This document shows positions 2,159 to 64,000 of a stretch of 64,000 bases of DNA, piece by piece. Below the pieces are notes generated by a model that ran no database searches, was not told the origin of the DNA, and saw nothing but the letters and a program-made list of their open reading frames with translations. The translations under genes were made by a program, and so were the position numbers. Position 1 is the first letter of the stretch, and the number at the start of each line of letters is the position of its first letter. This stretch comes from Candidatus Poribacteria bacterium. Its GTDB lineage: Bacteria; Poribacteria; WGA-4E; WGA-3G. The stretch covers positions 1,225,439-1,289,438 of the forward strand of contig OZ250160.1 in assembly GCA_965237835.1 (NCBI GenBank), read 5' to 3'.

Positions 2159-2201
2159 AAGTAATAAAAAGTCTTACATAGTTTAACAAATTTAGATATT
2201 T

Positions 2202-3317
2202 TTGTCAAGTTTTTTGTGTAAAGAACTGGAGGAATTCAATATGATGCGTAAATTTCAGCAACATTCATTTGGTAGCACATGCAAACGTCTATTGTCACTT
2301 TTTGCGATTGTCCTCTTTTTATTAACTTTCGTACCCGAAGTAGTAGAAAGCCGCCGCGGGGGTTTTGGGGGTGGTCGTAGTTTTAGCAGGAGTTCAAGTC
2401 GTAGTTCAAGCTCAAGGAGTTACAGCACACCGAAGCGATCTACAAGCAGTAGTTCTTCACGGAGTTCCTATACGAAACCGCGGAGTACAGGTAGCAGCTA
2501 CAGCGGAAACCGTACTACAGGAACAACTTCTACACGCAACAGCACCACAGCACGTCAGAAACAGACTGCAACAAATCGTGCCAAGACGACTAACACAACG
2601 TCAACTCGAAACAGCACTGCTACGCGTAGCCAACAGGGGCGAAAACAGGTCCGTCAACTCAAAGCGGAAAACCGCAGTTTGAAACGCAAAGTCACGACAG
2701 CAAACCGACAAACGTCGCAAGCTCGCAGGCAACAACGTTCAACCATCACAGTTAACAATTTTGGTGGTTACTACCCTATGACTGGTTATTCAATGTATAG
2801 CCTTCAGAGATCTATGATGTTTAACAATCTCCTGTTCGGCATCTATTTCCATGACTACTATAACCATTCGATCCGTCATAGTTACTTATGGCACTATCAC
2901 CATCGAGATTATGACCGATCGCATTGGGATGCCAAAAAGCAGGCTGAGTACGAACATTATAAGGAGTACTACGAAAACCAAGGCGTTGAAGCGAACGCGA
3001 ATTACGTAGATCCGGACACAAATCGTGATGAAGATTTTGCCGCCACTTATGTTGAAGAGAATCCAGATAAGTTTTATGGTGATAATGTTGAGGTGGTAAC
3101 GGTTGATGAACTTCCTGATGAAGCGGCTTTGAAACAGGAACTCATTGCCTCTGCCGAAACACCAACAGTAACGACTAATACGCAGCGAGCATCGCCGTCC
3201 CAAAGGATTATTGTAGAAAAGAGTACCTCAGGCGGAACATGGTTCGTTCTCATATTTGGAGGTCTTCTCATCGTTGGTGGAATCATGCTGGTAATGTACA
3301 ACAAAGGATATTTTTAG
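2202..3317 (+). CDS. hypothetical membrane-anchored protein with S/T/R-rich low-complexity region
   Basis: 371-aa ORF, N-terminal hydrophobic segment, long SSRSS/TTNT low-complexity tract, C-terminal TM helix; likely real start MMRKF near 2241. Confidence 0.45.
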   Translation: MSSFLCKELEEFNMMRKFQQHSFGSTCKRLLSLFAIVLFLLTFVPEVVESRRGGFGGGRSFSRSSSRSSSSRSYSTPKRSTSSSSSRSSYTKPRSTGSSYSGNRTTGTTSTRNSTTARQKQTATNRAKTTNTTSTRNSTATRSQQGRKQVRQLKAENRSLKRKVTTANRQTSQARRQQRSTITVNNFGGYYPMTGYSMYSLQRSMMFNNLLFGIYFHDYYNHSIRHSYLWHYHHRDYDRSHWDAKKQAEYEHYKEYYENQGVEANANYVDPDTNRDEDFAATYVEENPDKFYGDNVEVVTVDELPDEAALKQELIASAETPTVTTNTQRASPSQRIIVEKSTSGGTWFVLIFGGLLIVGGIMLVMYNKGYF

Positions 3318-3949: not shown

Positions 3950-4160
3950 CCTGAGTTCGATAAAGGATTCAAAGGTAAACGTAGGTTGGGTTGAACGAAT
4001 GTGAAACCATAGGTCAATTTAAGAAAGCACTATACATGCCCGTGCGTGGTAGGTCCGGTTTCCTAACCGAACCCACCGTGCCTGGAGGACCACTAATTGA
4101 CGCATAAGGGTTGAACGGATGTGAAACGTGAAACCCATAGGCGTCAATTTAACGTGTGGA
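3950..4160. repeat. composite repeat: family-H terminus (taacctgagttcgata) plus family-A hairpin element (GGTCCGGTTTCCTAACCGAACC) flanked by gcgtcaatttaa motifs
   Basis: Motifs recur at 11341, 30411, 47481, 48791. Confidence 0.6.
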
Positions 4161-4196: not shown

Positions 4197-4290
4197 TATA
4201 CCCAATTAACCCGATTTGTAGCGCGAGGTCTCTGGGTCCTCCTCGCAATGCCGACTTTATCCGAAAACGTCGAATCAAGTTAATTTGCTA
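4197..4290. repeat. family-B MITE-like element
   Basis: TIR cccaattaac...gttaatttgctat, internal hairpin gcgcgaggtctctgggtcctcctcgc; 7 full copies in window. Confidence 0.7.
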
Positions 4291-5070
4291 TTACATCTAC
4301 AGTTGTATGTTTTCAATCTTCAAAGATGCCAAAATCACTCATTAATTATATGTTCCTCTGACCGCTCCCCGCCCTGAAGGGCGAGGGTTCTTTTGAAGGA
4401 ACCCCCGCACGGGTTTCTCAAGGGTTACCGCTACTTGCATATCAAGTCCAGCAGGTATGGGGCCATCTTGCATCTCCTTTTAGGAGGCTTCCCGACTCAA
4501 GTTCGGGCAACACGTGGACAAACACGCGGAGCGGGCCATCTGGCTCACTACGGAAACACCTTAAACCTTATCAGGTGTGACCGATACTTTGACCGCTAAG
4601 TGCGGTTTCAAAACTAACGTTATTAGGAGAGTATCCTATCTTTCAAGGTTTTGGCTCCGTTGAAACGTCTTTTTTCTGTAGTGGATGCGTTTTCTACGTC
4701 TACGCTGCTCTTTACAAAAGAGTGGTTAGGATCAATGGCAAGGTTGCCAAAGTTGTCCATCCTAACCCGTAGATGTTAGAATTATATCACATTTTTTGGC
4801 GAAAGTCAAGTTTTTTTCAACAATGGAGGTCTTGGTTTCCGCTACTACATCCCCGCCTTAAAAGGCGAGGTTTTGTAGCGGAAGATTTGATAAAAAACTT
4901 GTTAAAAAGTTAAAAAAGGCTTGACATACATACTAACATTATAGTACACTATTAATAAACTAGAAATAACTCTGTATTTGACGTTTCTCTAAACAACGTT
5001 ATAGACACGTTTTAACTCATAGTTCGCAACCTTGTTTTGAGCGGACTGTGGTTGACAGGAGGTTTACTTC

Positions 5071-6558
5071 ATGCAGGAAAGATTGATTCTTGAAAAAATT
5101 CGACAGGTACATCGCCGTTTGAGCGTCCAAGGATATTTTCATACACTCGCGGCATTTCTATTATATGGACTTTTGGTGTGTGTACCGGTTGTTATCGTTG
5201 ATAGCGTGGTTACATCTTTTAACATCCCGCCACTGACATTCCTATGGGTGGCATGTGGCATTGTAGTGATTGCTCTGGTCGTCAGACTCATTCGACCAGT
5301 CAATCTGTACGAAGCAGCTCGTGCAATTGATATAGACGCCTCCCTTAAGGATCGTGTTGTAAGTGGTTTGGAACAGATCCAACGTAAATCCAATGAAACG
5401 TTGACTGCTCTGCAAATTCAAGATACATCCAAAAGATTACAAGCAGTTCCAATCAAAAAGGTTGCGCGTTATACTGTCCCACGTGAAACCAAATTTGCAG
5501 CGATTGTGGCAGTATTTCTCATCACTTTCTCGTTTGTAGAGTTTTTCGCACCTCCTGCGACTTCAACGGAAATTGATTATTCGCCGCAAATCGCAGCGGA
5601 AGCTGACACACTGTTGAATACGATTGAAGAGGTGAAAAAAGAGGCAGAACAGGGTGAGGATCAGGAACTCAAAGAAATCTTGGAAGAGATTGAAAAAAGA
5701 ACGCTTGAATTGAAAGAACCGCAGATTGTTCCTAAGGAAGCTCTTAAAAGAATGACCGAATTGAGTGCGCTGCTGAAAACGAAAATTGATCCGCTCAAAA
5801 TGGCGCAGCAGGAAGAACTTATGAAAGGTCTCGGACAGCAGTTCATCGGTAATCCGATCCTTGGCGATTTCGGGCAAAAGTTGAAACGCGGTGATTACGA
5901 AAAAGCAGCTGACGATCTTGACAAAGTGGCAAAAGATGTTCCGAAATATGACCAAGAAAAACGCCAGAACCTATCTGATGAACTCAAACGCGCTGGAAAA
6001 AGCCTAAAAGACACCGACCTTAACGGTCTCGGTGGAAAGTTAGCAGGCGCGGGCGAAGCAATGGAAGGCAACGATTCCGAAGGCACGCAAAAAAATCTTA
6101 GTGCCTCAAGCAAAGAGATTCGCAATTTCGAACTCCTCAAGAACCGTAACCAAAAGTTGACTGATCTGCTCTGTCAATGTGAGGAATGCAAAGCATGCAT
6201 CGCTGCATGTTGCCAAGGTACAGGTATCAATCCAACTACCGGTCTTACAAATATGCTGTCCAATAACCCCAGTGAAAAGGCAGGCAATAAAACTTCCGAA
6301 TCACAATTGGGTCAGCTCACTAATCTTGATTCTACTTTAAATCTTGAACATATTACTGGCGTTCAAGGTGAAGGAAATTCTTCTGTTGAAACCACTAAAG
6401 CATCTGCTGAAGGGCAGGGATCTAATCTCAGTTATAAAGATGCTTATATGAAGTATCAGAAACTTTCTGAAGATGCACTCACCCAAGAACAGATTCCGCT
6501 CGGATATAAGTTCTATGTGAAACGCTACTTTGAATCAATCAAACCGACTGAAGAGTAA
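5071..6558 (+). CDS. hypothetical membrane-anchored coiled-coil protein (paralog of 54406..55872)
   Basis: 495 aa; two N-terminal TM helices, conserved DRVVSGLEQIQ segment shared with 54406 ORF, long charged coiled coil; sits upstream of MoxR-DUF58-BatA cluster. Confidence 0.65.
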   Translation: MQERLILEKIRQVHRRLSVQGYFHTLAAFLLYGLLVCVPVVIVDSVVTSFNIPPLTFLWVACGIVVIALVVRLIRPVNLYEAARAIDIDASLKDRVVSGLEQIQRKSNETLTALQIQDTSKRLQAVPIKKVARYTVPRETKFAAIVAVFLITFSFVEFFAPPATSTEIDYSPQIAAEADTLLNTIEEVKKEAEQGEDQELKEILEEIEKRTLELKEPQIVPKEALKRMTELSALLKTKIDPLKMAQQEELMKGLGQQFIGNPILGDFGQKLKRGDYEKAADDLDKVAKDVPKYDQEKRQNLSDELKRAGKSLKDTDLNGLGGKLAGAGEAMEGNDSEGTQKNLSASSKEIRNFELLKNRNQKLTDLLCQCEECKACIAACCQGTGINPTTGLTNMLSNNPSEKAGNKTSESQLGQLTNLDSTLNLEHITGVQGEGNSSVETTKASAEGQGSNLSYKDAYMKYQKLSEDALTQEQIPLGYKFYVKRYFESIKPTEE

Positions 6559-6573
6559 AGTCGAGTTTTATAC

Positions 6574-6610
6574 AAATCACCGCAGAGATTAATTATCTTT
6601 GCGGTGATTT
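6574..6610 (+). terminator. putative hairpin terminator after 5071..6558
   Basis: aaatcaccgcagagat-taat-atctttgcggtgattt, 14-bp stem 16 nt after stop; weak T-run. Confidence 0.4.
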
Positions 6611-6627
6611 AATGCCTAAACAATACG

Positions 6628-6695
6628 AATACCCTTTAACCTGATTGTAGTGTGAGGTCTCTGGGTTCTCTTCGCAATGCTAACTTTATCACTCT
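6628..6695. repeat. truncated family-B element
   Basis: tgtagtgtgaggtctctgggttctcttcgcaatgctaactttatc matches family-B core; cut off by element at 6705. Confidence 0.5.
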
Positions 6696-6704
6696 TCCCG
6701 CCAA

Positions 6705-7125
6705 GACCCCCTGCTTTAGCTTGTGGGATTCAGGCGGGCAAATAATAGACAGATAAACAAAATGTGCCAGGGTATCACAAACTGCCCAGCGAAAGACAAA
6801 GGTGTAATACCACATCGCAATAACCCTTCAAAGTCGGTGGATAGCGTCCATATCAAGCCAGCGCAGCAATGCGGACTGGAATGCGTGAGCGGAGGCAATC
6901 CCTCCCGAAGTCTACGGACTTGTCGCGTGGCGTGCCTGGTAGAAAGGGCAGCTGTAAAATGGGTGGAACCAGAGCCAACCCACGACACTGCGGAAAACAA
7001 ATCAAACGGGCTGGCTTAGCAGCCCTAAGTGGAGCGGACGGAAGACGTAGCTCAGATCGGCAGTCTGTGAGGAAACACAAGCCCCAACCTTTAGGTTGTG
7101 GGTGCTATGACCACAAGCCATCTAA
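6705..7125 (+). mobile_element. IS200/IS605-family derivative lacking tnpB (left and right subterminal hairpins retained)
   Basis: Left hairpin ccccctgctttagcttgtggg resembles LE motif at 24380/36170/45800; 3' 80 bp (tctgtgaggaaacacaagccccaacctttaggttgtgggtgctatgaccacaag) is near-identical to sequence just downstream of tnpB stop at 12101-12165; short overlapping ORFs here are not credible genes. Confidence 0.6.
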
Positions 7126-7159
7126 TCAAGTTAATTTGGTATAACAGTCAGGGAGAATT

Positions 7160-8143
7160 ATGTCCGAACAAGTTGAACAAAAACATGAAGAATTTCGCCA
7201 GACCTTCCTAAAGATACAAGAGGAAATATCTAAGCGAATCGTCGGTCAAAAGGAAATTATTGAAGGTGTTTTAATCTGCTTAATGACGGGAGGACATGCT
7301 CTATTAGAAGGAGTACCTGGCTTAGGCAAAACACTACTCATCTCAACACTACAGGAAGTTCTTGACCTCAAATTTCAAAGGATACAGTTCACGCCAGATC
7401 TGATGCCAGCTGACATCGTAGGCACTACCATTGTCGCTGAGGATGAGGACAGACGAAAATTTTTTGAATTCCAACCTGGACCCGTCTTTGCAAATCTTGT
7501 CCTTGCAGACGAAATCAATCGTGCAACCCCTAAAACACAATCTGCGATGCTTGAGGCGATGCAGGAAAAATCAGTTACCGTTGCTGGACAACAGCGAAAA
7601 CTTGATTTACCTTTCTTTGTGATGGCAACCCAAAACCCGTTGGAGATGGAAGGCACCTATCCGTTACCAGAAGCACAACTTGACCGCTTCTTTTTCAAAC
7701 TCAAGGTAGAATACCCAACCATTGATGAACTTGATATTATAATGGAACGCACGACGAAGCGCGAAATGCCTTCTGTAGACAAAGTCTGTGATGGAAAGTT
7801 GATTAACGAATTGGAACTGATAGTCCGAGACATTCTCGTTGCAGAAGACGTTCGCAGATACGCCTTGCGGATTGTTTTTGGAACACATCCTGAAGCTGAT
7901 GACGCGCCCGAACTCACGAAAAAATATGTCCGATACGGTTCAAGTCCTCGTGGCGCACAAGCACTGATCCTCGCAAGTAAGGTGCGCGCAATCCTTGATG
8001 GAAGATACAACGTTGCGCGTGAAGATATTCAAGCTGTCGCACTGCCCAGTCTCCGCCATCGTCTAATTCTTAGCTTTGAAGGTGAAGCTGAAGGAATTGA
8101 CCCAGATGGAATCGTCCAGCATCTTTTAGAAGAAATCAATTAA
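7160..8143 (+). CDS. MoxR-family AAA+ ATPase
   Basis: 327 aa; Walker A GVPGLGKT, TPDLMPADIVGT, ATQNP motifs. Confidence 0.9.
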   Translation: MSEQVEQKHEEFRQTFLKIQEEISKRIVGQKEIIEGVLICLMTGGHALLEGVPGLGKTLLISTLQEVLDLKFQRIQFTPDLMPADIVGTTIVAEDEDRRKFFEFQPGPVFANLVLADEINRATPKTQSAMLEAMQEKSVTVAGQQRKLDLPFFVMATQNPLEMEGTYPLPEAQLDRFFFKLKVEYPTIDELDIIMERTTKREMPSVDKVCDGKLINELELIVRDILVAEDVRRYALRIVFGTHPEADDAPELTKKYVRYGSSPRGAQALILASKVRAILDGRYNVAREDIQAVALPSLRHRLILSFEGEAEGIDPDGIVQHLLEEIN

Positions 8144-8158
8144 CCACTCTTGTTAGAG

Positions 8159-8250
8159 GGGTTTGTAACCCCGATTTCATCTTGTAGGAGAGGTTTGTAA
8201 CCCCGATTTTCTTGTAGGAGGGGTTTGTAACCCCGATCCATTCAACAGGT
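8159..8250. repeat. three tandem ~31-bp units each with hairpin GGGGTTTGTAACCCC (family G)
   Basis: cttgt.aga.ggtttgtaaccccgat x3 in the 113-bp moxR/DUF58 spacer. Confidence 0.8.
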
Positions 8251-11299: not shown

Positions 11300-11722
11300 C
11301 TTATGAAGTTTAAGTATTTAAATCGGTAAACCCGATTTCCCCGGGGCTGGTAGGTGCGGTTTCCTAACCGCACCATTAGCGTCAATTTAAGAAAATGTCT
11401 GCGTTTTATAAACACCTCTCAATAACCATGAGGACTGAGATTGTCTTATATTTAGTCCCGTAGGGACGATATGTTTATAGTACCTCGTCCCGCAAACCCA
11501 TCTCTTCAGCTCCGTAGGAGCGATATGTGTATAACGTCTTATATAAACATTCCGCTCCTACGGAGCTCTAAGAGATTAAGGACATCGTTTTCTATAAACA
11601 TTGCGTCCCTACGGGACTAAAGAGAATTCTCATATTTGAAAACCACTAAATTGACGCTTATGGTGCGGTTTCCTAACCGCACCGATAGGTTGGAATCAAG
11701 TTAATATGGTATAACAAGGCTT
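11300..11722. repeat. composite family-A MITE-like element (~420 bp), inverted copy at 30379..30774
   Basis: Ends carry GGTGCGGTTTCCTAACCGCACC hairpins and gcgtcaatttaa/ttaaattgacgc inverted repeats; interior has four ~24-bp palindromic modules; right terminus ttggaatcaagttaatatggtata. Confidence 0.85.
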
Positions 11723-15367: not shown

Positions 15368-15550
15368 GAACTATCTTGATTTACCTGATTTGTAAATCAA
15401 AGTCACACTGAACCCTAAGAACATTCAGTGTCGATTTAGTGTTTCATTAAATCCACTAAAGGATTCTACATTTATAATTGTCATTGTCATTGTCAAATTG
15501 TCTGTGGTATACTTTTTAAGTTGAAAATGCTTTATCAAAACACTACTGAT

Positions 15551-15639
15551 ACCCAATTAACGTGATTAGAAGTTTTCTCATAGCGGTTAGCATTGCGAGG
15601 CACGGGGACCTCGCGCTACAGATCGGGTTAATTTGGTAT
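15551..15639. repeat. family-B MITE-like element ending ttaatttggtat 36 bp before the 15675 start codon
   Basis: acccaattaacg...attgcgaggcacggggacctcgcgctaca...gggttaatttggtatga. Confidence 0.8.
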
Positions 15640-18279: not shown

Positions 18280-18610
18280 GATAAACAGATTCAACAGGGT
18301 TATTTAGTTTTAGGCTTTTTGTCCATTTTAGACGAAAAGTCGCGATTCGGAGATCGCTCCTACAGCGGAAAGTCTTAGATTGAAAACCTAAATATTCGGA
18401 GAACTAAATAGCCCTGCAGATTCAATGACTACTGCTTTGTCCACCTAATTTTTGTGGTTTGTAGGTCGGGTAGAGCGTCCGCGAAACCCTCTGCTCTACC
18501 CGACCTACAATATTTTGGTGGACATAGCACTACTGTCCGTTGGGTAGAACGGAATCCACAATAAAATCCGACACAAAAAAGTGATTCATCCTCCATTTAA
18601 GATGTTTTAG
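18280..18610. repeat. nested repeats: family-H element (ttaacgtgagttcgata terminus) containing a family-C element (18297..18414)
   Basis: 18541-18610 is reverse complement of 52470-52540; family-C core gtcgcgattcggagatcgctcctacagcggaaag. Confidence 0.75.
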
Positions 18611-23284: not shown

Positions 23285-24410
23285 TAGTGATACTCACGAC
23301 GGAAACCAAAGCCGTGTGCTTCTTTTAGCACACAACCATCCTCTGTGATTCCTGCTTCCGTCTCTCGTGCCTCAAACAGAGGTCTTACTTGGACTCCACA
23401 GGCGTTTATACTCTCTGTCTATCCGACAGCAAGGTGTTTTAGGTTTATTGCAGCGTTGACATCTCTATCTATTTGATAGTCGCATTGACTGCAATGATAA
23501 GTTCTCTCTGATAGCGTCAAGTCATCTTTTTTGTGTCTACAACTACTACAAGTTTTGCTTGATGCATAGAATTGCGGTGCTTCTAATACAGGTATTCCGA
23601 AAGCATCTGCTTTCGTTTTTAGCTTATTTAGAAACCCGCCTAACGCTGAATCTGATAACGCCTTTGCTAACTTTCTATTCTTTAGCATGTTTGTCACCTT
23701 GAGTGTTTCTATGCTGATAGCACCTGCACGACGGATAATATCGGTAGTTGCTTTGTGGTGCACATCGTTTCTGATACAAGCGATACGATAGTGGATACGT
23801 TCTACCTTGTGTTTTTGTTTAGACCAGTTATTTGATCTAAACACTTTACGGCTCAACTTTCGTTGATCTCGTTTGAGTTTTCTCTCATAGCGTTTTAGGG
23901 GTCTTGGATTATCATACTTAGTCCCATCACTCAAGGTTGCCATTGTTGTTAAGAGTTCACCACGATTGGAAGTTGTCTTGATCTAAACCTGCCTTGAAAT
24001 CTGACAACGCTTGATTATATGCAAATCTCGCATAGCCACATTGTTGTGAAAACCAGCGTCTTTGCTTAAAAGTGGGATCTAAAGTTATTTTGTGTGTTTT
24101 GTATGGCATATCTGACTCCCATAGGTTTCTGACTCCCTCGTCAAAGGTGTGGTAGGTGTTGACGCACCCACCACTGAGTCAGTCTTATAATTATACCACA
24201 AAATACATGTAAATGTCAAGCGTTTTTTGACCCACAACCAGGGTTATTTAGTTTTAGACTTTTTGTCCATTTTAGACGAAAAGTCGCGATTCGGAGATCG
24301 CTCCTACAGGGGAAAGTCTTAGATTGAAAATCTAAATATTCGGAGAACTAAATAGCCCTGGACCCACAACTAAAGCAGTGGGATTGTCAGCTAATTCCCT
24401 TCACTTTCGG
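23285..24410 (-). mobile_element. degenerate IS605-family element filling the arc-dop spacer, with a nested family-C MITE (24241..24358)
   Basis: Right-end module (taaacgcctgtggagtcc...gtgtgctaaaagaagcacac hairpin) abuts dop start codon; left-end hairpin (cactgctttagttgtgggtc) abuts arc stop codon. Confidence 0.65.
23419..24115 (-). pseudogene. tnpB: tnpB with internal deletion (N-terminal 57 codons then stop; C-terminal 174-codon ORF)
   Basis: C-terminal ORF has RuvC-II/III and zinc finger (CSSCRHKKDDLTLSERTYHCSQCDYQIDRDVNAAIN); reverse complement of 24000-24115 encodes MPYKTHKITLDPTFKQRRWFSQQCGYARFAYNQALSDF... then stop. Confidence 0.7.
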
Positions 24411-29579: not shown

Positions 29580-29856
29580 ACGCTATTCTACATGTCAATG
29601 TTATTTTTACTGTGGTATATAAGTGTTTTGTCATCTGAATCGCGGGTTATGCGGATTGCACAGATAGATAGGTACAGTATTGCTTCTCTTGTAGGTTCCC
29701 GATAATTACTGAGTCCTGTTAACAAAAAGATTCACAAGTGCACAACTTGAATGAAACCCACTTTTTTGAAAGCTTTTATGAAAAAGGCAATCGGTTGCCG
29801 AGCGAGACAGCATTGGCGTACGAGTATTTTAAGCTGTACCGAGATATGTTTTCAGA

Positions 29857-30192
29857 GGAGCGTTCTTTGCGCGCACTATGTGAACGCGAAGTGAACGGTA
29901 AAAAAAGATCAATTTCACAAATGGGACGTTGGTCAAAAGAGGAGCATTCTTTGCGCGCGCTATGTCACCTGGATGTCACCGGTAAAAAAAGATCTGAACG
30001 CGTTTTTAAACGTTGGTCAAGAGAGGAGCGTTCTTTGCGCGCGCTATGTCACCTGGATGTCACCGGTAAAAAAAGATCTGAACGCGTTTTTAAACGTTGG
30101 TCAAGAGAGGAGCGTTCTTTGCGCGCGCTATGTCACCTGGATGTCACCGGTAAAAAAGATCTAAACGCGTTTTTAAACGTTGGTCAAGTGAA
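29857..30192. repeat. 84-bp tandem repeat x4
   Basis: ggagcgttctttgcgcgcgctatgtcacctggatgtcaccggtaaaaaaagatctgaacgcgtttttaaacgttggtcaagaga; copy 1 diverged, last copy has 1-nt deletion. Confidence 0.9.
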
Positions 30193-30378
30193 CACAATTG
30201 GCAGGAACGAGTTGCGACTTATGATGCTGAGGTAGAACTTTCGTTTGTGATAAATCTGTCGCAGAAGTTTAAGTAGTGGAAGTATCTAAAACCTCGCGCG
30301 TATGGCTGGTCTAAGTGTTTAGCAAGGTGAAATTAAAATGTCTATTATGTTATATATAAATTTACATAATAGACTAAT

Positions 30379-30774
30379 ACCAAATTAACTTGATTCCAAT
30401 CTATCGGTGCGGCTTCCTAACCGCACCATAAGCGTCAATTTAGTGGTTTTCAAATATGAGAATTCTCTTTAGTCCCGTAGGGACGCAATGTTTATAGAAA
30501 ACGATGTCCTTAATCTCTTAGAGTTCCGTAGGAGCGGAATGTTTATATAAGACGTTATACACATATCGCTCCTACGGAGCTGAAGAGATGGGTTTGCGGG
30601 ACGAGGTACTATAAACATATCGTCCCTACGGGACTAAATATAAGACAATCTCAGTCCTCATGCTTATTGAGAGGTGTTTATAAAACGCAGACATTTTCTT
30701 AAATTGACGCTAATGGTGCGGTTTCCTAACCGCACCTACCGTCCTGAAAATAAGACAAATCCCGTTAATAAGGT
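30379..30774. repeat. composite family-A MITE-like element, reverse-complement copy of 11300..11722
   Basis: Near-identical over ~390 bp in inverted orientation; termini ataccaaattaac and cccgttaat. Confidence 0.85.
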
Positions 30775-31039
30775 TGGCAGAACTGACAATGATCCAGTCG
30801 TTAGAGTTAGATCACAAGCATCTACAGCAATCCCAGAAAATCCGAAAATCTCGCTCATTATCCGCACAGATGTACCGCGTGAGATGGAGACAGCAATACA
30901 TGCAATTTTAGCTGCACGCGGCAAACGCAAAGAAACCGCTCCAGGAACAGAATGGTTTATTACACACCCAAGCGAAGTCGAAGAAATTCATGCATTTATT
31001 CAAGGAGGAACTTCAAATACCTGTTCCATTTCCCAATAG
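30775..31039 (+). pseudogene. 5'-truncated T5orf172 (GIY-YIG-like) domain gene; N-terminus replaced by MITE sequence
   Basis: ...KVGRTDNDPVVRVRSQ...LIIRTDVPREMETAIHAILAARGKRKETAPGTEWF matches T5orf172 core; ORF 30674 start lies inside MITE. Confidence 0.55.
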
Positions 31040-32935: not shown

Positions 32936-33018
32936 ATATCAAATTAACTTGATTCGAAGTTTTCTGATAAAGTCAGCATTGCGAGGCACGGGGACCTCGC
33001 GCTACGAATTGGGTATAA
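32936..33018. repeat. family-B MITE-like element 17 bp upstream of hisG start
   Basis: atcaaattaacttgattcgaagttttctgataaagtcagcattgcgaggcacggggacctcgcgctacgaattgggtataaa. Confidence 0.8.
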
Positions 33019-37318: not shown

Positions 37319-37404
37319 TTTTTCACCATTTTCGATATTAATTCTTAACGGTTTATTGTATCACATCATTGCTTGAAAGTCTATAGAAAATTAAGGTAGT
37401 AGCA

Positions 37405-37523
37405 GGGTTATTTAGTTTTAGGCTTTTTGTCCATTTTAGACGAAAAGTCGCGATTCGGAGATCGCTCCTACAGCGGAAAGTCTTAGATTGAAAACCTAAA
37501 TATTCGGAGAACTAAATAGCCCT
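37405..37523. repeat. family-C MITE-like element
   Basis: Near-identical to 18297..18414 and 24241..24358. Confidence 0.85.
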
Positions 37524-37555
37524 GAAGATAGTAGTCGCACTCCGCGTGCCGTAAT

Positions 37556-37644
37556 AGCAAATTAACTTGATTTGAAGTTTTCCGATAAAGTCAGCATTGC
37601 GAGGCACGGGGACCTCGCGCTACAAATGGGGTTAATTGGGTATA
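37556..37644. repeat. family-B MITE-like element 22 bp upstream of 37666 start
   Basis: caaattaacttgatttgaagttttccgataaagtcagcattgcgaggcacggggacctcgcgctacaaatggggttaattgggtataaa. Confidence 0.8.
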
Positions 37645-40762: not shown

Positions 40763-41587
40763 CTATTTTGCGTTTTTAATTTCTCCCCATGTCATGCTCA
40801 ATTTGTCCACAGGTTCGACTGCAAATGGATCCCCATTGGATAAATAGAGGCTTTCCACCTCATCTGCAGAAAGTGCTCGGTGGAACATTAGGAACTCATC
40901 CATCAATCCTTTGAATGTCCACGACGCGGGAGTCGCGACACCATTAAATGCTGTGGCTTCAGAACCAACCCCGATGAATCCGTACCGTTGTAATTTCGGT
41001 CCGATCATTTTATTAGTAGTAGCTGTGGCTTCCTCTACATCCACTTTACCATCAACATAGATCCGCTTCATATCGGCATTAAAAGTTGCCACGACATGAT
41101 GCCATTGATCATCCGTAACTTTAACATTACCGTGCCAATCCTTTATAGGACAACAGACATCAAAAGCGATAAAGTCCGTTTGATCGATTGCAGCATCTCC
41201 AGCTGCAAAACGGAAATAGTCGCTTCGATCCCAAGAGGCAATCATCCCTCTATCAGCAGTCTTAATCCATACCGCGATGCTAAGTTCCGGTATACCTTCG
41301 GTATAATTGAGATTTCGCACTGAGATATATTCGGTTGCCCCACCAGGAAATTCCATACATTCGTTAAATTTTCCCTCGTCCACAATCTTGAGATCGTTAC
41401 CGTGGAGGAAGCCGTCATTCTCATTTCCGGACACATCTAAGATATCTTCACCCTTAAGGGAGGCATCGTCAAAACTATAATAGATGACCAGGTCTTTATC
41501 ACTTATGCTCCGCGCGTGGACAGTCAACGCAAGTACTGTTAGAATTAGTGTTAGCGTCAATAGTTGGAAAATCAAAGAGGTTTTCAT
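40763..41587 (-). CDS. secreted LamG/concanavalin A-like lectin domain protein (paralog 1)
   Basis: 274 aa, signal peptide; ~60% identical to 42209..43033 ORF. Confidence 0.7.
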   Translation of the reverse strand: MKTSLIFQLLTLTLILTVLALTVHARSISDKDLVIYYSFDDASLKGEDILDVSGNENDGFLHGNDLKIVDEGKFNECMEFPGGATEYISVRNLNYTEGIPELSIAVWIKTADRGMIASWDRSDYFRFAAGDAAIDQTDFIAFDVCCPIKDWHGNVKVTDDQWHHVVATFNADMKRIYVDGKVDVEEATATTNKMIGPKLQRYGFIGVGSEATAFNGVATPASWTFKGLMDEFLMFHRALSADEVESLYLSNGDPFAVEPVDKLSMTWGEIKNAK

Positions 41588-42208: not shown

Positions 42209-43033
42209 TTATTTCGTGCTCTTAATCTTTCCCCACGTAATACTCAATTTCTCCGCGGGTTCAATAGCAAATGGATTCCCAGACGCATTCGCAAGACTTC
42301 CAACCTCCTCTGCAGAAAGTGCTCGGTGGAACATTAGGAACTCATCCATCAACCCTTTGAAAGCCCAAAAAGGTCCAGTGGTTCCATCAAAAGTCACAGC
42401 TTCTGAACCAATTCCGATAAATCCGTAACGTGTCACAGCCTTTCCTATCATTTTGTTGTTTGTGTCTGTGGGTACCTCCACATCCAATTCACCGTCAACG
42501 TATATCCGTTTCATCTCAGCATCAAAGGTTGCAACAAGATGATGCCAATTGTCATCAGTGACATCAATTTTACTCCACCAATCCTTTATAGGGCAACAAA
42601 CATCAAAAGCAACAAAGGTTGTGGCTGCGTTCCCACCTATGTCATCGCCTACAGCAAAACGGAAGAATTCACTTCGATCCCAAGAGGCAATCAGACCTCT
42701 TTGCGCTGTCTTAACCCATACCGCGAGCGACAGTTCCGGAAATACGTCGGTATAATGATGGTTTCGCACCGCAATGTAATCAGATGCCGCCCCCGGAAAC
42801 TCCATACCATCGTTAACTTTGCCCTCAACAATTTTGAGATTGCTGCCGTTGAGCAAACCGTGATTCTCATTTCCGGATCCGTCCAAGATATCTCCATCTT
42901 TATGGGTGTCCTCGTTGAAACTGTAATAGATGATGAGTTCATCTGTGCTGATTCCCTGCGCGTGGGCAGTCAACGTTGTAACAGTCAGTATTAGCGTTAG
43001 CGTCAAAAGTGTAATAAAAAAATAGGTTTTCAT
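42209..43033 (-). CDS. secreted LamG/concanavalin A-like lectin domain protein (paralog 2)
   Basis: Start taken at MKTYFFITLL (43033); signal peptide. Confidence 0.7.
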   Translation of the reverse strand: MKTYFFITLLTLTLILTVTTLTAHAQGISTDELIIYYSFNEDTHKDGDILDGSGNENHGLLNGSNLKIVEGKVNDGMEFPGAASDYIAVRNHHYTDVFPELSLAVWVKTAQRGLIASWDRSEFFRFAVGDDIGGNAATTFVAFDVCCPIKDWWSKIDVTDDNWHHLVATFDAEMKRIYVDGELDVEVPTDTNNKMIGKAVTRYGFIGIGSEAVTFDGTTGPFWAFKGLMDEFLMFHRALSAEEVGSLANASGNPFAIEPAEKLSITWGKIKSTK

Positions 43034-43187
43034 TTCAGTTCTCCTTTTATAATTATTATAATTAATAGGCGCGTTTACAAGCGCGCAGATTATAGACAGT
43101 TTAAGAATATCCACCCACACCTAACAACAATAGTTGCCTCGCTACGTTCTTAATCCATGTAATGCGAGAAGTTACCTAAACATTGCA

Positions 43188-46075: not shown

Positions 46076-46077
46076 AA

Positions 46078-46168
46078 GACCCAATTAACCCAATTCGTAG
46101 CGTGAGGTCCCCGTGCCTCACAATGCTTGACTTTATCAGAAAACTTCAAATCAAGTTAATTTGGTATA
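46078..46168. repeat. family-B MITE-like element
   Basis: cccaattaacccaattcgtagcgtgaggtccccgtgcctcacaatgc...caagttaatttggtataat. Confidence 0.8.
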
Positions 46169-46186
46169 ATAGCAAAACTGAAATGT

Positions 46187-46378
46187 GTGAAACGGTCTTC
46201 AATCAACAAAGGAAAGCAAAACGATATTGAGAAGGATATGGAGTTAGTTATTTTTGTTTCATCTATTGTAATTTCGGCTATTCTCATCATGATACGTGGA
46301 GAACTCAAGGATATTGGTGAAAGTCTACACGAGATTGGGAAACATCTTGACCGAATTAATAGGAAAGATGGAAGTTGA
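46187..46378 (+). CDS. small hypothetical membrane protein
   Basis: 63 aa, one TM helix; weak. Confidence 0.3.
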   Translation: MKRSSINKGKQNDIEKDMELVIFVSSIVISAILIMIRGELKDIGESLHEIGKHLDRINRKDGS

Positions 46379-47433: not shown

Positions 47434-47724
47434 TTATGAAGTTTAAGTATTTAATTCGGTAAAGCCGGTTTTCCCCAGGGCCGGTAGGTGCGGTTTCCTA
47501 ACCGCACCATAAGCGTCAATTTAGTGATCCTCCAGGTCCGGTAGGTGCGGTTAGGAAACCGCCCCGTTTCGTTTTCGCAACTGATTATCGGACGCATATT
47601 CCATAAGTTCCGGTGTGGTTACAAACCGCACCTACCGGGTTGGGGACCGCTAAATTGACGCATAAGGGGCGGTTTCCTAACCGCACCGATAGATTGGAAT
47701 CCCGTTAATTTGGTATAAGACCTC
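47434..47724. repeat. family-A MITE-like element with two GGTGCGGTTTCCTAACCGCACC-type hairpins
   Basis: Same termini as 11300 and 48762 elements; ends cccgttaatttggtata. Confidence 0.8.
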
Positions 47725-48761: not shown

Positions 48762-49153
48762 AATACCAAATTAACGGGATTTATCTTATTTTCCGGACGG
48801 TAGGTGCGGTTTCCTAACCGAACCATAGGCGTCAATTTAGTGCGTCTGATACACCTTTCGCCTCTCCGAGGCTTTGGTAAATCACATCTTAGCACCAGCG
48901 GTGCGACAGGTATATAGAAAACGGTGTAAAAAGTCTCTTGAACCCCAGCGGGGTGACAGGTGTCTGACAACATGTGCCCATATACACCTTTCGCCCCGCT
49001 GGGGCTTGAGTTTGGTATGGATCGTGGTCTATACACATTCCGCCCCGCTGGGGCTAAGATATTCAAAATATAGGTTTATTTCCTTAAATTGACGCCTATG
49101 GTGCGGTTTCCTAACCGAACCGATAGATTGGAATCAAGTTAATTTGGTATAAA
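48762..49153. repeat. family-A MITE-like element with internal CCCCAGCGGGG palindromic modules
   Basis: Termini ataccaaattaacgggatt...GGTGCGGTTTCCTAACCGAACC and reverse; interior differs from the 11300 copy. Confidence 0.8.
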
Positions 49154-58472: not shown

Positions 58473-58585
58473 GCGCTATTGAAAAGTAAAAAGTATTTTG
58501 TTGTAAAGATCTTGCTGATCACTTGATAAATTTGGTATAATACATTGAATTAAATAGGTTCAAAAACACCGAGTTTTCCGCTAAT

Positions 58586-58676
58586 ACCAAATTAACTTGA
58601 TTCAAAGTTTTTTTGATATAGCACACGGTTGCGAGGCACGGGGACCTCGCGCTACAAATCGCGTTAATTTGGTATT
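58586..58676. repeat. family-B MITE-like element with perfect 13-bp TIRs flanked by TA
   Basis: cTA ATACCAAATTAAC ... GTTAATTTGGTAT TAg. Confidence 0.85.
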
Positions 58677-60280: not shown

Positions 60281-61042
60281 TCAATCGTCTAATTCAACAA
60301 CTTCGCCTGCCATATCACGATGCATTGTCGGACGGATAACCAATTCTGGTATGTTACTCCGTTGTGGTAAGGTTGCAATGAGAAGAATTGCCGATGAGGT
60401 TTCAGCGACGTCTACCATCGTAGTGCGCGCATCAGCATCTGGGGGGATCGGTCGTTTATCCAGAATAGGCGTTGCCACCTCGCCAGGGATTATGACACTT
60501 GCTCGGATACCTGTATTCCTTAAATCGTTATTAAGAAACTCGGTGAAGTTGATTACCCCCGCCTTTGCTGCCCCGTAAGCAAATCCACTAAAAGGACCAG
60601 GCGTAACCGCTGCAAGTGAGGAAATGTTGATAATCGTTCCCGATTTCGCTTTCAGCATTGCTGGCACAACTGCTTGCGTCCAGAAAAACGTCCCGATCAG
60701 ATTTGAATCAATGACCGAGCGTACCTCCTCAGGTGTTGTATTGAGAAGTCGCCGATTGTATGAACTGTGTCCAGCATTGTTCACCAACACATCAATTTGA
60801 CCAAATTTCTCAAGCACACTGCTAACTATGTGTTGAACAGCATCGCAGTCGGCGACATTAACTGCGTAACTTTCTGCTATTCCACCCGCTGCTTTTATTT
60901 CAGATGTAACAGTCTCTAACTTTGATGCTGTTCTGCCGACAATCACAACTGTCGCACCCTCTTGTGCCATTTTTCGGGCAGCATCGCCACCAATTCCGCT
61001 TCCGCCTCCTGTGATGATACACACGTGTTCCTTTAATTTCAT
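60281..61042 (-). CDS. SDR-family short-chain dehydrogenase/reductase
   Basis: TGGGSGIGG, NNAG, YGAAKAG catalytic motif. Confidence 0.85.
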   Translation of the reverse strand: MKLKEHVCIITGGGSGIGGDAARKMAQEGATVVIVGRTASKLETVTSEIKAAGGIAESYAVNVADCDAVQHIVSSVLEKFGQIDVLVNNAGHSSYNRRLLNTTPEEVRSVIDSNLIGTFFWTQAVVPAMLKAKSGTIINISSLAAVTPGPFSGFAYGAAKAGVINFTEFLNNDLRNTGIRASVIIPGEVATPILDKRPIPPDADARTTMVDVAETSSAILLIATLPQRSNIPELVIRPTMHRDMAGEVVELDD

Positions 61043-61632
61043 TCTTTACCTCCACTTGGTAAAATACGTTGGACAGCCGCCTTCACCTCTTTTGAAAACG
61101 ATTCCAGTTCATACTGTTCCTCCGAGATCTTTTCACGATGTTCATCAAACGGATATCCTCCCTTACCCGATTCATTGAAATAGGCACTGAGTTGGTACCT
61201 TTGAAAAATGTTCATGCGTGGATAATCTTCTGTCCACGGGCTTGCATCGTGAAGCAGATTCGTTGAGAAAATCGCGACATCCCCTGCTTGCATTGGAAGC
61301 GTAATTGAGGTCGGTGGATCGTGTTTTACAGGTAGATTCTCAGGTGTCTGAAATAGGGATTTATGGCTACCCGGAACAAGGCAAAATCCGGTTTCTGGCG
61401 GGACGTCTACTAATGCAACCCACGTGGCGATATGGTTACAATAGATATAACCTGCGGCAGCTTGATAATCGTTATGAGGATTACGAAACCCAGGTGGAAA
61501 TTTAAATCCGCTGTCATCACGATGAAAGTGTTGAGGAAAGTCATGCTTTGTCATCATAGTGAAATTGTAGTGAAAGAGGCGCGGCGCATTCATGGTTAAT
61601 CCAGCTACAACTCGCATAATATCGGGATTCAT
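61039..61632 (-). CDS. PhyH-family dioxygenase, apparently 5'-truncated or frameshifted
   Basis: 197 aa with HRDDSG (H-x-D) and LLHDASP; lacks ~70 N-terminal residues; upstream region shows PhyH-like N-terminal peptides in other frames. Confidence 0.5.
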   Translation of the reverse strand: MNPDIMRVVAGLTMNAPRLFHYNFTMMTKHDFPQHFHRDDSGFKFPPGFRNPHNDYQAAAGYIYCNHIATWVALVDVPPETGFCLVPGSHKSLFQTPENLPVKHDPPTSITLPMQAGDVAIFSTNLLHDASPWTEDYPRMNIFQRYQLSAYFNESGKGGYPFDEHREKISEEQYELESFSKEVKAAVQRILPSGGKE

Positions 61633-61745
61633 CGCAAGGTCTTGAAAAAGGGGATGCCCATATTGTACCTGCCATCAATAGGCGGTGCCGAAAGTGCTTT
61701 TTCAAGGGATGCTTGCTGTGGCGCATCAAGGAACGGACGCCCACC

Positions 61746-61876
61746 ATTGGCTTTTCGTTTGTCTTACAGTGCCTCTTCACCATCGGCGTTTTATAGTGCC
61801 TGCGAAGTTTCGAACGCAGTCAGCAGTGCAGCCAATGATGTCCGCAACTTCGCGCGGTGTTTTCGGATTTTCCGTG
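61746..61876 (-). pseudogene. IS630/Tc1-mariner-family transposase N-terminal HTH fragment
   Basis: Reverse-strand MRWHAIWLLADTENPKTPREVADIIGCTADCVRNFAGTIKRRW then stop resembles IS630 HTH region; no remaining transposase body. Confidence 0.4.
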
Positions 61877-62841
61877 TCAGCAAGGAGCCAAATCGCATGC
61901 CACCGCATCCGTTCCCGTAGGCATTCACATTCCAGATACCTTTGTTTAAGTGCTTCTATTGAAAATGAGGTGAAACTCCGTGTTTAGTGTTTTTCATGTG
62001 TTTAGAGTAGCAGATTAAAAAAAATAAAACAAGAATAATTCTGTTAATTTGGTATGATTTTATACAACATGTCATGTAATTCATTTTAAGACATATTATG
62101 AATATATATATAAAATAATTTGATTAAAATTAAGTTTAATGTTAAATTAAGTTTAATGTTAAATTAATGTCTATTCAATATGAGACTTCAAGTGTCGGAG
62201 TAGCGAACCAAAACCTTGTACACACATAGAATAGGTGTTGGTAAATACGTACAACATAGACAAACTGATATGTTCCGTTATGGAGTCCTTATTTATTAAT
62301 ATAAAGACAAATAAAAATTAGTTTGATATTAAATTAGTTTTAACTTATACTTAATTGTAAGTAGTAAGTCTACTTTCACGAGTTCGCGAGTATTTTTCCA
62401 CTGATTCCCCCTGTTTGAGGAGTTTATGAGGATTAAAAAATAAATTAAGTAATTCGGGCTTGACCCTCAACCTCGGTAGGTTCGGTTTCCTAACCGCACC
62501 GAACTCTACAAGGCAACTGGAAATTACCCGATTAAATTCTTAATCTTCATTTAGGAGGTCCGAAATAGGTAAAAACACCAGAGCCATTCAGTTTTCAAGT
62601 TTTCACTATATTTTAGAGAAGATCGCGATTCGGAGATCGCTCCTACAGAAGAGAGACTTGAGCATCAGATGAGAACTACCGGACAATTGAATGGCTCTGG
62701 TAAAAACACCCTCCTATCTATACCGAAACTCACCTTATTTCGGACACCGAAAATGTGTCCCTACGAAGTTAAGGTATTGAGATGGTAGCAAGAAAAAGAG
62801 GCGTGAGCGTCCTGTAAGAAAAGTATGAAGGAGAATTAATA

Positions 62842-64000
62842 ATGAAAATATCTATGCAAATAATATATTTTTTTGCAAGTTTAGTTTTAGTACTCTTTGT
62901 CCCTTGTTTTGCTTTTGTGCCAACCACGGTAGCGGATCCAGGTGGTCCGGAAGGTGGTTTTACCTATTATTTAGCAGCGTGGGATGGTAGTTCTACCTAC
63001 TCCGATGGTAAATTCTTTCTTACGAACGATTTACGCGGGTCAACATTGGTTGATTTAGAAAATGATGCTAATGGTTATCTTCCGATAATTTTTGATTTTG
63101 GTGTGCCTATATATGGCAACCCCGATGGCACTGGATTTCCTGTGATATCAGACATTACGTTGGTTGATGTTCAAAAAAGTAGTGATTCAAGTTCTATACT
63201 GGATCATGGTGTCGTCATTGAAAGAGTGAGTCCGCTTCATGAACCTGAAAAGTTCCTTGTAGACATTAGAGTGCCTAATAGTCTTTTTGACGATTTGCCA
63301 ATAACGGTTATATTAGAGGTGCCAGAGAACACAATATATAACGAAGATGGTGTGGGGAATGTTGCCTATGGACCAATAGAGTTAAATATCTTTGGGAGAT
63401 TTTCATTTAGCGTAAAAGATGTATCATATTATTTAGCAGCGTGGGATGGTAGTCCTACCTACTCCGATGGAAAATTCTTACTTGGGAACGATTTGCGAGT
63501 ATCAACATTGGTTGATTTAGAAAATGATGCTAATGGTTACCTTCCGATAATTTTTGATTTTGGTGTGCCTATATATGGCAATCCTGATGGCACTGGATTT
63601 CCTGTGATATCAGACATTACGTTGGTTGATGTTCAAAAAAGTAGTGATTCAAGTTCTATACCGGGTCATGGTGTCGTCATTGAAAGAGTGAGTCCGCTTC
63701 CTGAACCTGAAAAGCTTCTTGTAGACATTAGAGTGCCTAATAGTCTTTTTGACGATTTGCCAATAACGGTTATATTAGAGGTGCCAGAGAACACAATATA
63801 TAACGAAGATGGTGTGGGGAATGTTGCCTATGGACCAATAGAGTTAAATATCTTTGGGAGATTTTCATTTAGCGTAAAAGATGTATCATATTATTTAGCA
63901 GCGTGGGATGGTAGTCCTACCTACTCCGATGGAAAATTCTTGCTTGGGAACGATTTGCGAGTATCAACATTGGTTGATTTAGAAAATGATGCTAATGGTT
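62842..64000 (+). CDS. secreted repetitive protein, 3' end beyond window; contains 462-bp near-identical tandem repeats
   Basis: ATG at 62842, RBS aaggag; signal peptide MKISMQIIYFFASLVLVLFVPCFAFVPTTVADP; repeat unit starts at 62968, 63430, 63892 (YYLAAWDGS.TYSDGKF...); not in ORF track because no stop in window. Confidence 0.75.
   Translation, partial: MKISMQIIYFFASLVLVLFVPCFAFVPTTVADPGGPEGGFTYYLAAWDGSSTYSDGKFFLTNDLRGSTLVDLENDANGYLPIIFDFGVPIYGNPDGTGFPVISDITLVDVQKSSDSSSILDHGVVIERVSPLHEPEKFLVDIRVPNSLFDDLPITVILEVPENTIYNEDGVGNVAYGPIELNIFGRFSFSVKDVSYYLAAWDGSPTYSDGKFLLGNDLRVSTLVDLENDANGYLPIIFDFGVPIYGNPDGTGFPVISDITLVDVQKSSDSSSIPGHGVVIERVSPLPEPEKLLVDIRVPNSLFDDLPITVILEVPENTIYNEDGVGNVAYGPIELNIFGRFSFSVKDVSYYLAAWDGSPTYSDGKFLLGNDLRVSTLVDLENDANG

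Follow-up and report, generated by a model that had tools for sequence, protein, structure and literature searches.

A miniature inverted-repeat element of Candidatus Poribacteria shares its ends with an IS630-family insertion sequence and lies between 3-bp TNA target duplications

A repeat of about 90 bp was flagged near position 58584 of a 64,000-nt stretch of a Candidatus Poribacteria genome (contig OZ250160.1, positions 1,225,439 to 1,289,438), which we refer to as the window. [quoted passage not shown] The locus therefore raises the question of what the repeat is, what moves it, and whether it serves the genes that it precedes. The flagged repeat is a genuine nonautonomous MITE with no transposase of its own. 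It is likely that this 89-bp element owes its mobility to an IS630-family DDE transposase that acts in trans and duplicates TNA and that it is mostly a tolerated passenger whose promoter-like junction is a by-product. Taken together, the kind of element is ordinary, and its target duplication is unusual.

The reality of the repeat, as first annotated, is borne out both by the number of its terminal inverted repeats (TIRs) and by full-length profile matches. The 13-mer ATACCAAATTAAC, counted with up to two mismatches, was found 22 times in the window, compared with 3.2 expected, and none of 100 shuffles reached 22. An nhmmer profile built from the six full window copies matched these with E values of 1e-24 to 1e-28 and also found one split copy, whose partial match at 6633-6691 is the truncated copy annotated earlier near 6628. 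The profile was then run on a wider sample of about 0.57 Mb, consisting of the window and 504 kb of loci (designated by L numbers) from related Candidatus Poribacteria genomes, in which it gave 136 matches, including 114 of full length. An exact 25-nt core of the element matched at least 62 stretches in species-representative genomes; all those listed were metagenome-assembled genomes of Candidatus Poribacteria, and most of the listed matches came from the closed 6.07-Mb OZ244616.1, a genome distinct from that of the window (about 96% identity across 4.1 kb).

MITE-B is 89 to 92 bp long and noncoding, and its copies are located in intergenic DNA. Its TIRs are TACCAAATTAAC and GTTAATT(T/G)GGTA, and the terminal base pairs, counted on the consensus minimum free energy structure, are kept in 84 to 99 of 99 distinct copies. 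The TIR stem encloses a 6-bp GC hairpin, GCGAGG-N8-CCTCGC, with folding energies of -25 to -31 kcal/mol (z = -2.5 to -5.8), so that the inverted ends and the internal GC-rich hairpin described earlier do fold stably. The copies are dispersed and polymorphic among relatives, in which those upstream and downstream of hisG are present or absent. With its size, TIRs, target duplication, dispersal in many copies, and ends shared with an insertion sequence (IS), the 89-bp element shows every tested defining feature of a MITE, and its original assignment to that class stands. A search of the whole window against Rfam at gathering thresholds recovered only tRNA-Arg and nothing for MITE-B.

The target duplication differs from the one first assigned. 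The repeat had been described as flanked by a TA duplication in the style of Tc1/mariner and IS630 elements. When the 12-nt flanks of the copies were aligned, the bases outside ATACC...GGTAT were mostly TA...AA or TT...TA, with TG...GA or TC...CA in some copies; therefore, the element is TACC...GGTA between direct 3-bp repeats. Identical TNA flanks were found in 55 of 70 isolated copies (TTA, 26; TAA, 24; TGA, 4; TCA, 1), and TNA directly precedes 98% of 235 termini, with a symmetrized target context of T(C/A)-TWA-(G/T)A. A TA duplication (TA-ATACC...GGTAT-TA) was rejected because it fits only 8 of the 70 isolated copies, the flagged copy among them. The ends look TA flanked because the element begins with TA and the central base of the target is mostly A or T.

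Comparison of occupied and unoccupied sites led to the same result. The flanks of each copy were joined with one TNA kept and searched for in all of the sampled DNA, and three base-exact filled/empty pairs showed a 3-bp duplication. The filled site L062:3094-3183 (tcTTA-TACC..GGTA-TTActt) corresponds to an empty site at 23342-23430 of the window (tcTTActt), the filled site L013:5191-5281 (TAA) corresponds to empty sites in L027 and L055, and the filled site L071:2770-2846 corresponds to the orthologous empty site cacataTAAggag in L070, the element having entered exactly at the hisG stop codon TAA. Around 58.5 kb, L066, L067, and L068 were too rearranged for an empty site to be identified, and exact-protein look-ups with the window genes at 14429 and 44955 for empty sites returned nothing beyond the window's own contig. 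The hisZ-hisG spacers of relatives with 92 to 93% protein identity were too diverged for a base-exact empty site, and they show that the element is absent there.

A source of transposase for MITE-B was found through a lone terminus at 62043-62055 (minus strand) in the window, which is followed about 60 nt on by an ATG and a frameshifted frame encoding HTH_23/HTH_29. A degraded IS630-type helix-turn-helix fragment had been annotated at 61746-61876 as a candidate relic of the autonomous partner; its identity is confirmed, its extent is larger (about 61640-62055), and it is better evidence than the earlier reading because it has retained its own matching left TIR. The closest relatives of the relic frame are 167-aa orfA proteins, the loci of which hold a complete IS. 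The IS at L002:2911-4096, in a related metagenome contig, is 1,186 bp long, bounded by TACCAAATTAAC...GTTAATTTGGTA, and apparently intact, and thus supplies the IS630 transposase with matching TIRs that the first-pass annotation had named as a check. In this IS, orfA (167 aa) and a DDE_3-containing orfB are joined via a -1 shift at an A-run into a 362-aa fusion, which matches the IS630 profile NCBIfam NF033545 at 217.9 bits (cutoff, 100), the alignment running unbroken over the junction, and which contains the Pfam domains DDE_3 and HTH_23/29/32/33, the latter being the N-terminal paired helix-turn-helix domains of the family. The same IS with identical termini but an inactivating extra base is present in L001, a 731-bp fragment of it is present in L024 (OZ244616), and the window relic has 92% nucleotide identity to the L002 copy.

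The termini shared by MITE-B, the IS of L001 and L002, and the window relic bear out the IS630-type ends first ascribed to the MITE and link it to an autonomous partner. MITE-B and the IS match at 12 of 12 positions at both ends and share a subterminal GATT (TACCAAATTAAC-NN-GATT). Beyond about 20 nt per end, no similarity of the MITE-B interior to the IS was found, which rules out that MITE-B is a simple internal-deletion derivative of the IS. In the window, the relic has replaced the 5' part of a PhyH gene at 61039-61632, to which it is fused through a deletion; the gene encodes 197 aa there, compared with 278 aa in two sister strains (L066 and L067 at 5190-6026), which points to an IS-associated deletion behind the shortened gene.

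The TNA duplication extends to relatives of this IS. While an exact scan of JGI metagenomes for the IS left end gave no match, a protein-based scan of these metagenomes recovered 80 IS630-type loci with 44 to 57% amino acid identity. Clear TA(C/T)... termini were found in 31 of these loci, and in all 31, TNA borders the IS on either side. The two flanks are identical in 16 of the 31 (0.30 expected by chance; P = 0.01), and one IS was found at two sites, one flanked by TCA/TCA and the other by TAA/TAA. The lengths of these relatives (1,116 to 1,175 bp), like that of the L002 IS, fall within the range of about 1.0 to 1.4 kb with short TIRs that is expected of the IS630 family; TNA of 3 bp stands in place of the TA insertion and duplication by which that family is also recognized. 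It has been stated that the IS630-Tc1-mariner group duplicates TA throughout, with the exception of Sailor (TATA) (PMC8533490). Our literature search, which did not extend to ISfinder entries, found no report of a TNA duplication for IS630. This IS630 clade very likely makes staggered cuts 3 nt apart at (C)TNA(G), which exceeds TA by one base.

The same results bear on the alternative that MITE-B is not an IS630 passenger at all but a REP-like or other host palindrome or the product of another enzyme (TnpB/IS605 type or RAYT), its likeness to the IS ends being coincidental. IS605 OrfB/TnpB genes do occur near related loci, and the genome contains many other hairpin repeats. This explanation is nevertheless hardly conceivable given the agreement of the MITE with both IS ends and the subterminal GATT, the TNA flanks that are the same on the MITEs and all 31 related ISs, and the precise filled/empty sites with a 3-bp duplication. 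To our knowledge, neither the IS200/IS605 nor the REP/RAYT systems produce a combined signature of TIRs and target site duplication (TSD).

The same set of ends was found on several element families. When the 235 termini were clustered by their internal DNA, at least five internal-sequence classes with the same terminus were recognized, including family A, three classes built on hairpins of the form GGTGCGGTT...AACCGCACC, and a subfamily of the 90-bp element in which the hairpin is a second one. In the window, the terminus also caps the larger family-A elements at 11700, 30377, 47704, 48763, and 49138, in agreement with the first-pass annotation of family-A composites. Its suggestion that one transposase probably mobilizes all of them is plausible, since several families share the terminus, and a single transposase for all classes would be the economical reading.

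Other repeats accompany these families. At least 10 occurrences were counted of a 22-nt hairpin module, GGTGCGGTTTCCTAACCGCACC (in the window at 4039-4073, 11340-11374, 47474-47508, 62466-62500, and elsewhere), which is found both as a solitary unit and as a building block of larger family-A elements. A dispersed 127-nt repeat with a GCGATTCGGAGATCGC hairpin is present at 18295-18421, 24239-24365, and 37403-37529, the copies being 94 to 99% identical, and partially at 62600-62659; one copy lies directly 5' of the MITE-B copy at 37554. At L012:1264-1572 (reverse complement), MITE-B is interrupted by a small element with TGAAGATTAA...TTAATCTTCA inverted ends, an insertion that points to one or more additional MITE families whose termini are unrelated.

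The proposal that MITE-B acts as a portable promoter starts from its outward terminus, which had been read as TGnTATAAT. The element itself contributes only TGGTA, and the remainder consists of the TNA duplication and one flank base. Among the six window copies, the perfect sequence TGGTATAAT is found only at 46162-46170, while the others read TATGAG, TATTAG, TATTAC, or TATAAA. About half of the insertions yield TATAAn at the left-end junction TGGTA-TNA-n, and no copy can do so at both ends, since a TWA that reads TAA in one direction reads TTA in the other. Most copies have GGGTAT at the right end, which leaves the TG wrongly spaced. The extended -10 look-alike is the automatic outcome of ...TTTGGTA being joined to T-N-A and one flank base.

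In its strict form, the promoter hypothesis holds that the terminus and the target duplication make an extended -10 element (TGnTATAAn) that drives the downstream gene and that copies are kept for this reason. Besides the TATAAn and occasional perfect junctions, it can draw on the precedent of Correia elements and other bacterial MITEs with sigma70-like promoters (PMC10969869) and on the host itself, in which tRNA-Arg(CCG) (window 2160-2215, minus strand) is preceded by TTGACA-17 nt-TAAACT. This suggests that the Poribacteria lineage uses canonical sigma70-type -35/-10 elements; therefore, activity of some copies is plausible, as would be occasional promoter donation by individual copies. No -35 partner was found at the termini, however, and a generic -35/-10 scan of 32.8 to 47 kb of the window found no canonical pair at any of them.

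Placement relative to genes was compared at 93 insertion loci, with genes called as the longest nonoverlapping open reading frames (ORFs), 100 aa being the minimum length (77% coding). The numbers in codirectional, divergent, and convergent intergenic regions were 61, 19, and 13, compared with 59.5, 16.2, and 17.2 expected by intergenic length (P = 0.46), and thus convergent regions are not depleted. In codirectional spacers, 35 copies were nearer a start and 26 nearer a stop (P = 0.31), and in the wider sample 33 lay within 70 bp of a start and 29 within 70 bp of a stop, so that no excess at starts was seen despite the bias of longest-ORF calls toward starts. The first-pass annotation had noted copies close to start codons; this is true of several window copies (17, 22, and 35 nt away), but in the wider sample stops are nearby about as often, and one of the starts listed, that of ORF 46187, belongs to a frame of 15 codons, the first called downstream gene beginning at 46238. 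The closeness of copies to starts is better explained by the shortness of spacers and by the frequency of TAA and TTA targets at stop codons and just before Shine-Dalgarno sequences. The orientation of the element relative to the gene, a tally named beforehand as one that could refute the promoter proposal, was random in the sample (25 versus 36; P = 0.20), and the TSD strand showed no significant bias against the TAA/TTA background (16 versus 10; background, 0.53; P = 0.44). The preferential position and orientation upstream of genes that characterize Correia-type elements were thus not found, and over the 93 loci the portable promoter proposal was not sustained.

Individual copies gave a similar picture. 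The hisZ-hisG spacer is 135 bp long with the MITE in the window and 51 to 53 bp without it in L070 and L071 (HisG, 92 to 93% identical), and in L071 a separate copy follows the hisG stop codon and precedes the Shine-Dalgarno sequence of the next gene, hisS; the hisG and hisS copies therefore occupy spacers within operons, and relatives possess these spacers free of the element. For copies located 13 to 17 nt from an ATG (hisG, moxR, L012, and L071), transcription would, by standard sigma70 geometry, start about 7 nt past the hexamer, a point that falls within the ribosome-binding site or downstream of it. One comparison points the other way: TGnTATAA was found on 14 of 38 ends within 70 bp of a start versus 3 of 24 near a stop (P = 0.044, uncorrected, after several cutoffs had been tried and with ends that are not independent), a weak trend of such ends to face nearby starts. 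Overall, a promoter that maintains the family is rather improbable, and it is likewise unlikely, by a shade the more so, that selection keeps TGGTATAAn insertions upstream of genes as ready-made extended -10 promoters.

Another possibility is that MITE-B acts at the RNA level, its cotranscribed hairpin serving as an RNase III or RNase E site, a stabilizer, or an operon decoupler, as for Correia and ERIC elements; precedents are summarized in PMC10969869. Both strands fold stably, many copies lie between codirectional genes, including those in the hisZ-hisG and hisG-hisS spacers, and compensatory pair changes are seen in the two internal hairpins (at one pair, CG in 80 distinct copies versus TA in 10; at another, GC in 43 versus AT in 33). 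However, the long stem is simply that of the TIRs, on which transposition depends, the variants with compensatory changes may mark subfamilies and not repeated events, each being a single event inherited by its subfamily, and no U-tract or Rfam match was found. Orientation relative to genes is random, although a near-palindrome folds either way. We consider the prospect of a family maintained by such an RNA function to be very slim.

Head-to-tail arrays of MITE-B also occur, with a period of 92 bp (89 + 3) and a single TNA shared between units. Ten independent arrays with 17 abutting pairs were found (L014:3594-4052, L026:6411-6777, L006:1334-1605, L009:661-932, and six others), and in all 10 the units have the same orientation. 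Adjacent copies are a median of 97% identical, compared with 85% for random pairs, while five adjacent pairs are only 79 to 88% identical. Local duplication explains the near-identical arrays, but the same-orientation rule in the 79 to 88% pairs is not explained by simple recent duplication. In the unlikely reading that selection keeps TGGTATAAn insertions upstream of genes, such arrays could serve as expandable stacks of promoters or hairpins.

In the explanation that we prefer, that of a MITE moved in trans, the transposase probably recognizes about 18 terminal bp (TACCAAATTAAC-NN-GATT) common to the MITE and the 1.19-kb IS. As the aligned sequences show, insertion takes place at TNA in a weak (C/A)TNA(G/T) context with duplication of 3 bp; the chemistry would be cut-and-paste, as is expected from the family. 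Several unrelated internal sequences have acquired the same ends, and the element has reached high copy number in a clade of Candidatus Poribacteria. Most copies would then be tolerated passengers in short intergenic and intra-operon spacers; single copies may incidentally act as a promoter or an RNA hairpin, for which the family would not be maintained.

Several points weigh against this explanation. Nonidentical TNA flanks occur in 15 of the 70 isolated MITEs and 15 of the 31 related ISs, and the two closest full ISs (L001 and L002) both have mismatched flanks, which plausibly arose from mutation, recombination between copies, or chimeric metagenome assembly. Within the window, the IS is represented by the relic and not by an intact copy, and mobilization of the MITE by the IS in trans would follow from their shared termini. 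The compensatory changes hint at a structural constraint for which a purely passive element would have no need, and the excess of TGnTATAA ends facing starts belongs here as well. The related loci were picked by the exact 25-nt MITE core, by which subfamilies are undersampled, and the bulk of them come from the single genome OZ244616; the longest-ORF gene calls behind the placement statistics are crude, and the distances derived from them are biased toward starts.

Table 1. MITE-B copies, related elements, and an unoccupied target site in the window
Feature	Position in window	Strand	Remarks
MITE-B, flagged copy	58584..58675	+	nhmmer E = 7.6e-25; fold -28.3 kcal/mol, z = -4.4
Flagged copy, element proper TACC...GGTA	58585-58674	+	Flanks TAA and TTA; one of the minority with nonidentical flanks
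MITE-B	15549..15639	+	TSD TGA/TGA; 35 nt 5' of vWA gene ATG (15675); outward hexamer TATGAG
MITE-B, right TIR internally deleted	32936..33017	+	TSD TAA/TAA; hisZ-like/hisG spacer, 17 nt 5' of hisG ATG
MITE-B	37554..37643	+	TSD TAA/TAA; divergent intergenic region, 22 nt 5' of metallophosphoesterase ATG (37666)
MITE-B, compensatory stem change GTGAGG/CCTCAC	46077..46167	-	Sole window copy with junction TGGTATAAT; next called gene from 46238
MITE-B subfamily with other hairpin GCGAGGAGGACCCAGAGACCTCGC	4198..4291	-	TSD TTA/TTA
Split MITE-B, first ~62 nt	6630..6691	-	Profile match 6633-6691
Split MITE-B, last 21 nt CTAATCAAGTTAATTTGGTAT	7121..7142	-	17 nt 5' of moxR ATG (7160)
Truncated IS630-family IS	61640..62055	-	Left TIR 62043-62055 and first ~110 transposase codons (HTH), with frameshifts
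Family-A type nonautonomous element, 388 bp	48763..49150	.	Shared termini, TSD TAA/TAA, internal GGTGCGGTTTCCTAACCGNACC hairpin modules
Family-A element, ~400 bp	30377..30775	.	Left terminus intact, right terminus degenerate
Family-A end	11647..11712	-	Terminus GTTAATATGGTAT
Family-A end	47651..47716	-	Terminus GTTAATTTGGTAT
Unoccupied TTA target	23385..23387	.	Window 23347-23425 is 97.5% identical, gap-free, to the joined flanks of L062:3094-3183

The halves of the split MITE-B (Table 1) are parted just 5' of moxR by a unique insert of about 430 bp (6692-7120). No second copy of this insert was found in any of the sampled DNA; it contains short ORFs only (91 to 98 aa), and Rfam in E-value mode gave only a chance miRNA match in 6560-7200. 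Near the flagged copy, a conserved segment, CTTGATAAATTTGGTATAAT (58510-58545; also in L066), looks like a solitary MITE end and gives a perfect TGGTATAAT. Its position differs between two sister strains, and it may be either what is left of an end or a true promoter.

The window also contains repeats of other kinds. Three tandem 30- to 32-nt units (TCTTGTAGGAGRGGTTTGTAACCCCGATTT), each with a small hairpin, are located at 8148-8239 between moxR and the next gene. Tandem repeats within long ORFs were found at 29842-30177 (84 bp, four units) and at 62965-64000 (462 bp, at least three units, running past the end of the window), and these ORFs probably encode repeat-domain proteins. The neighboring minus-strand genes at 40763-41587 and 42209-43120, with 75 to 77% DNA identity, are a diverged tandem duplication.

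Among known systems, Tourist, PIF-Harbinger, and IS5 elements share with MITE-B a 3-bp TNA (mostly TWA) duplication. The likeness is in the target only, as the Poribacteria partner is of the IS630 type (NF033545, DDE_3, and a paired helix-turn-helix). IS630 of Shigella sonnei resembles that partner in transposase family, length (about 1.1 to 1.2 kb), short TIRs, and a palindromic target framed by C...G. The target of IS630 is CTAG. In contrast, the Poribacteria target, (C/A)TNA(G/T), is widened at its center by one base, as is the duplication, and the Poribacteria transposase is made from two frames via a -1 shift at an A-run. The IS630-derived RUP elements of Streptococcus pneumoniae, which have been linked to IS630-Spn1, and the Tc1/mariner-derived Stowaway elements of eukaryotes are likewise short and noncoding, with IS630/Tc1-mariner-type TIRs, an AT-rich target centered on T...A, high intergenic copy number, and a long hairpin. 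They differ in their duplication, which is TA in RUP and Stowaway and TNA (3 bp) in the Poribacteria MITE; by its duplication, MITE-B is thus Tourist-like and not Stowaway-like.

The Correia elements of Neisseria (CREE/NEMIS) are MITEs of about 100 to 150 bp that are often found next to genes, form RNA hairpins, and have TATA-like ends able to make -10 boxes with the target. Their promoter activity has been shown experimentally (PMC10969869). In contrast, the Poribacteria MITE has a -10-like junction only, shows no upstream enrichment or orientation bias in the sample, and has an identified autonomous partner; the sequences of the two are unrelated. Nezha, a MITE of Anabaena and Nostoc, likewise shares its TIRs and direct repeats with a full IS, ISNpu3, and has filled and empty sites in relatives (PMC3184786). 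It differs in host phylum, sequence, and size (130 to 170 bp), the two having been set side by side by description and not by sequence.

The promoter-like junction of MITE-B and the nearness of copies to start codons are consequences of its end sequence, its target preference, and the shortness of spacers and do not in themselves speak for promoter function. MITE-borne promoters are already well precedented by Correia and other elements (PMC10969869). A literature search found no MITEs described for Poribacteria, and the present MITE/IS pair is the first that we could find for Candidatus Poribacteria, which as a phylum has been seen in metagenomes alone. Poribacteria genomes are densely seeded with nonautonomous families of one end pair, which bears on their assembly, annotation, and strain typing, and the TA-looking ends are a trap for annotators. 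For transposon biology, the point of interest is a whole IS630-type clade that is common in soil metagenomes too and duplicates TNA, which within a much-studied superfamily presents a testable change of target-cutting geometry.

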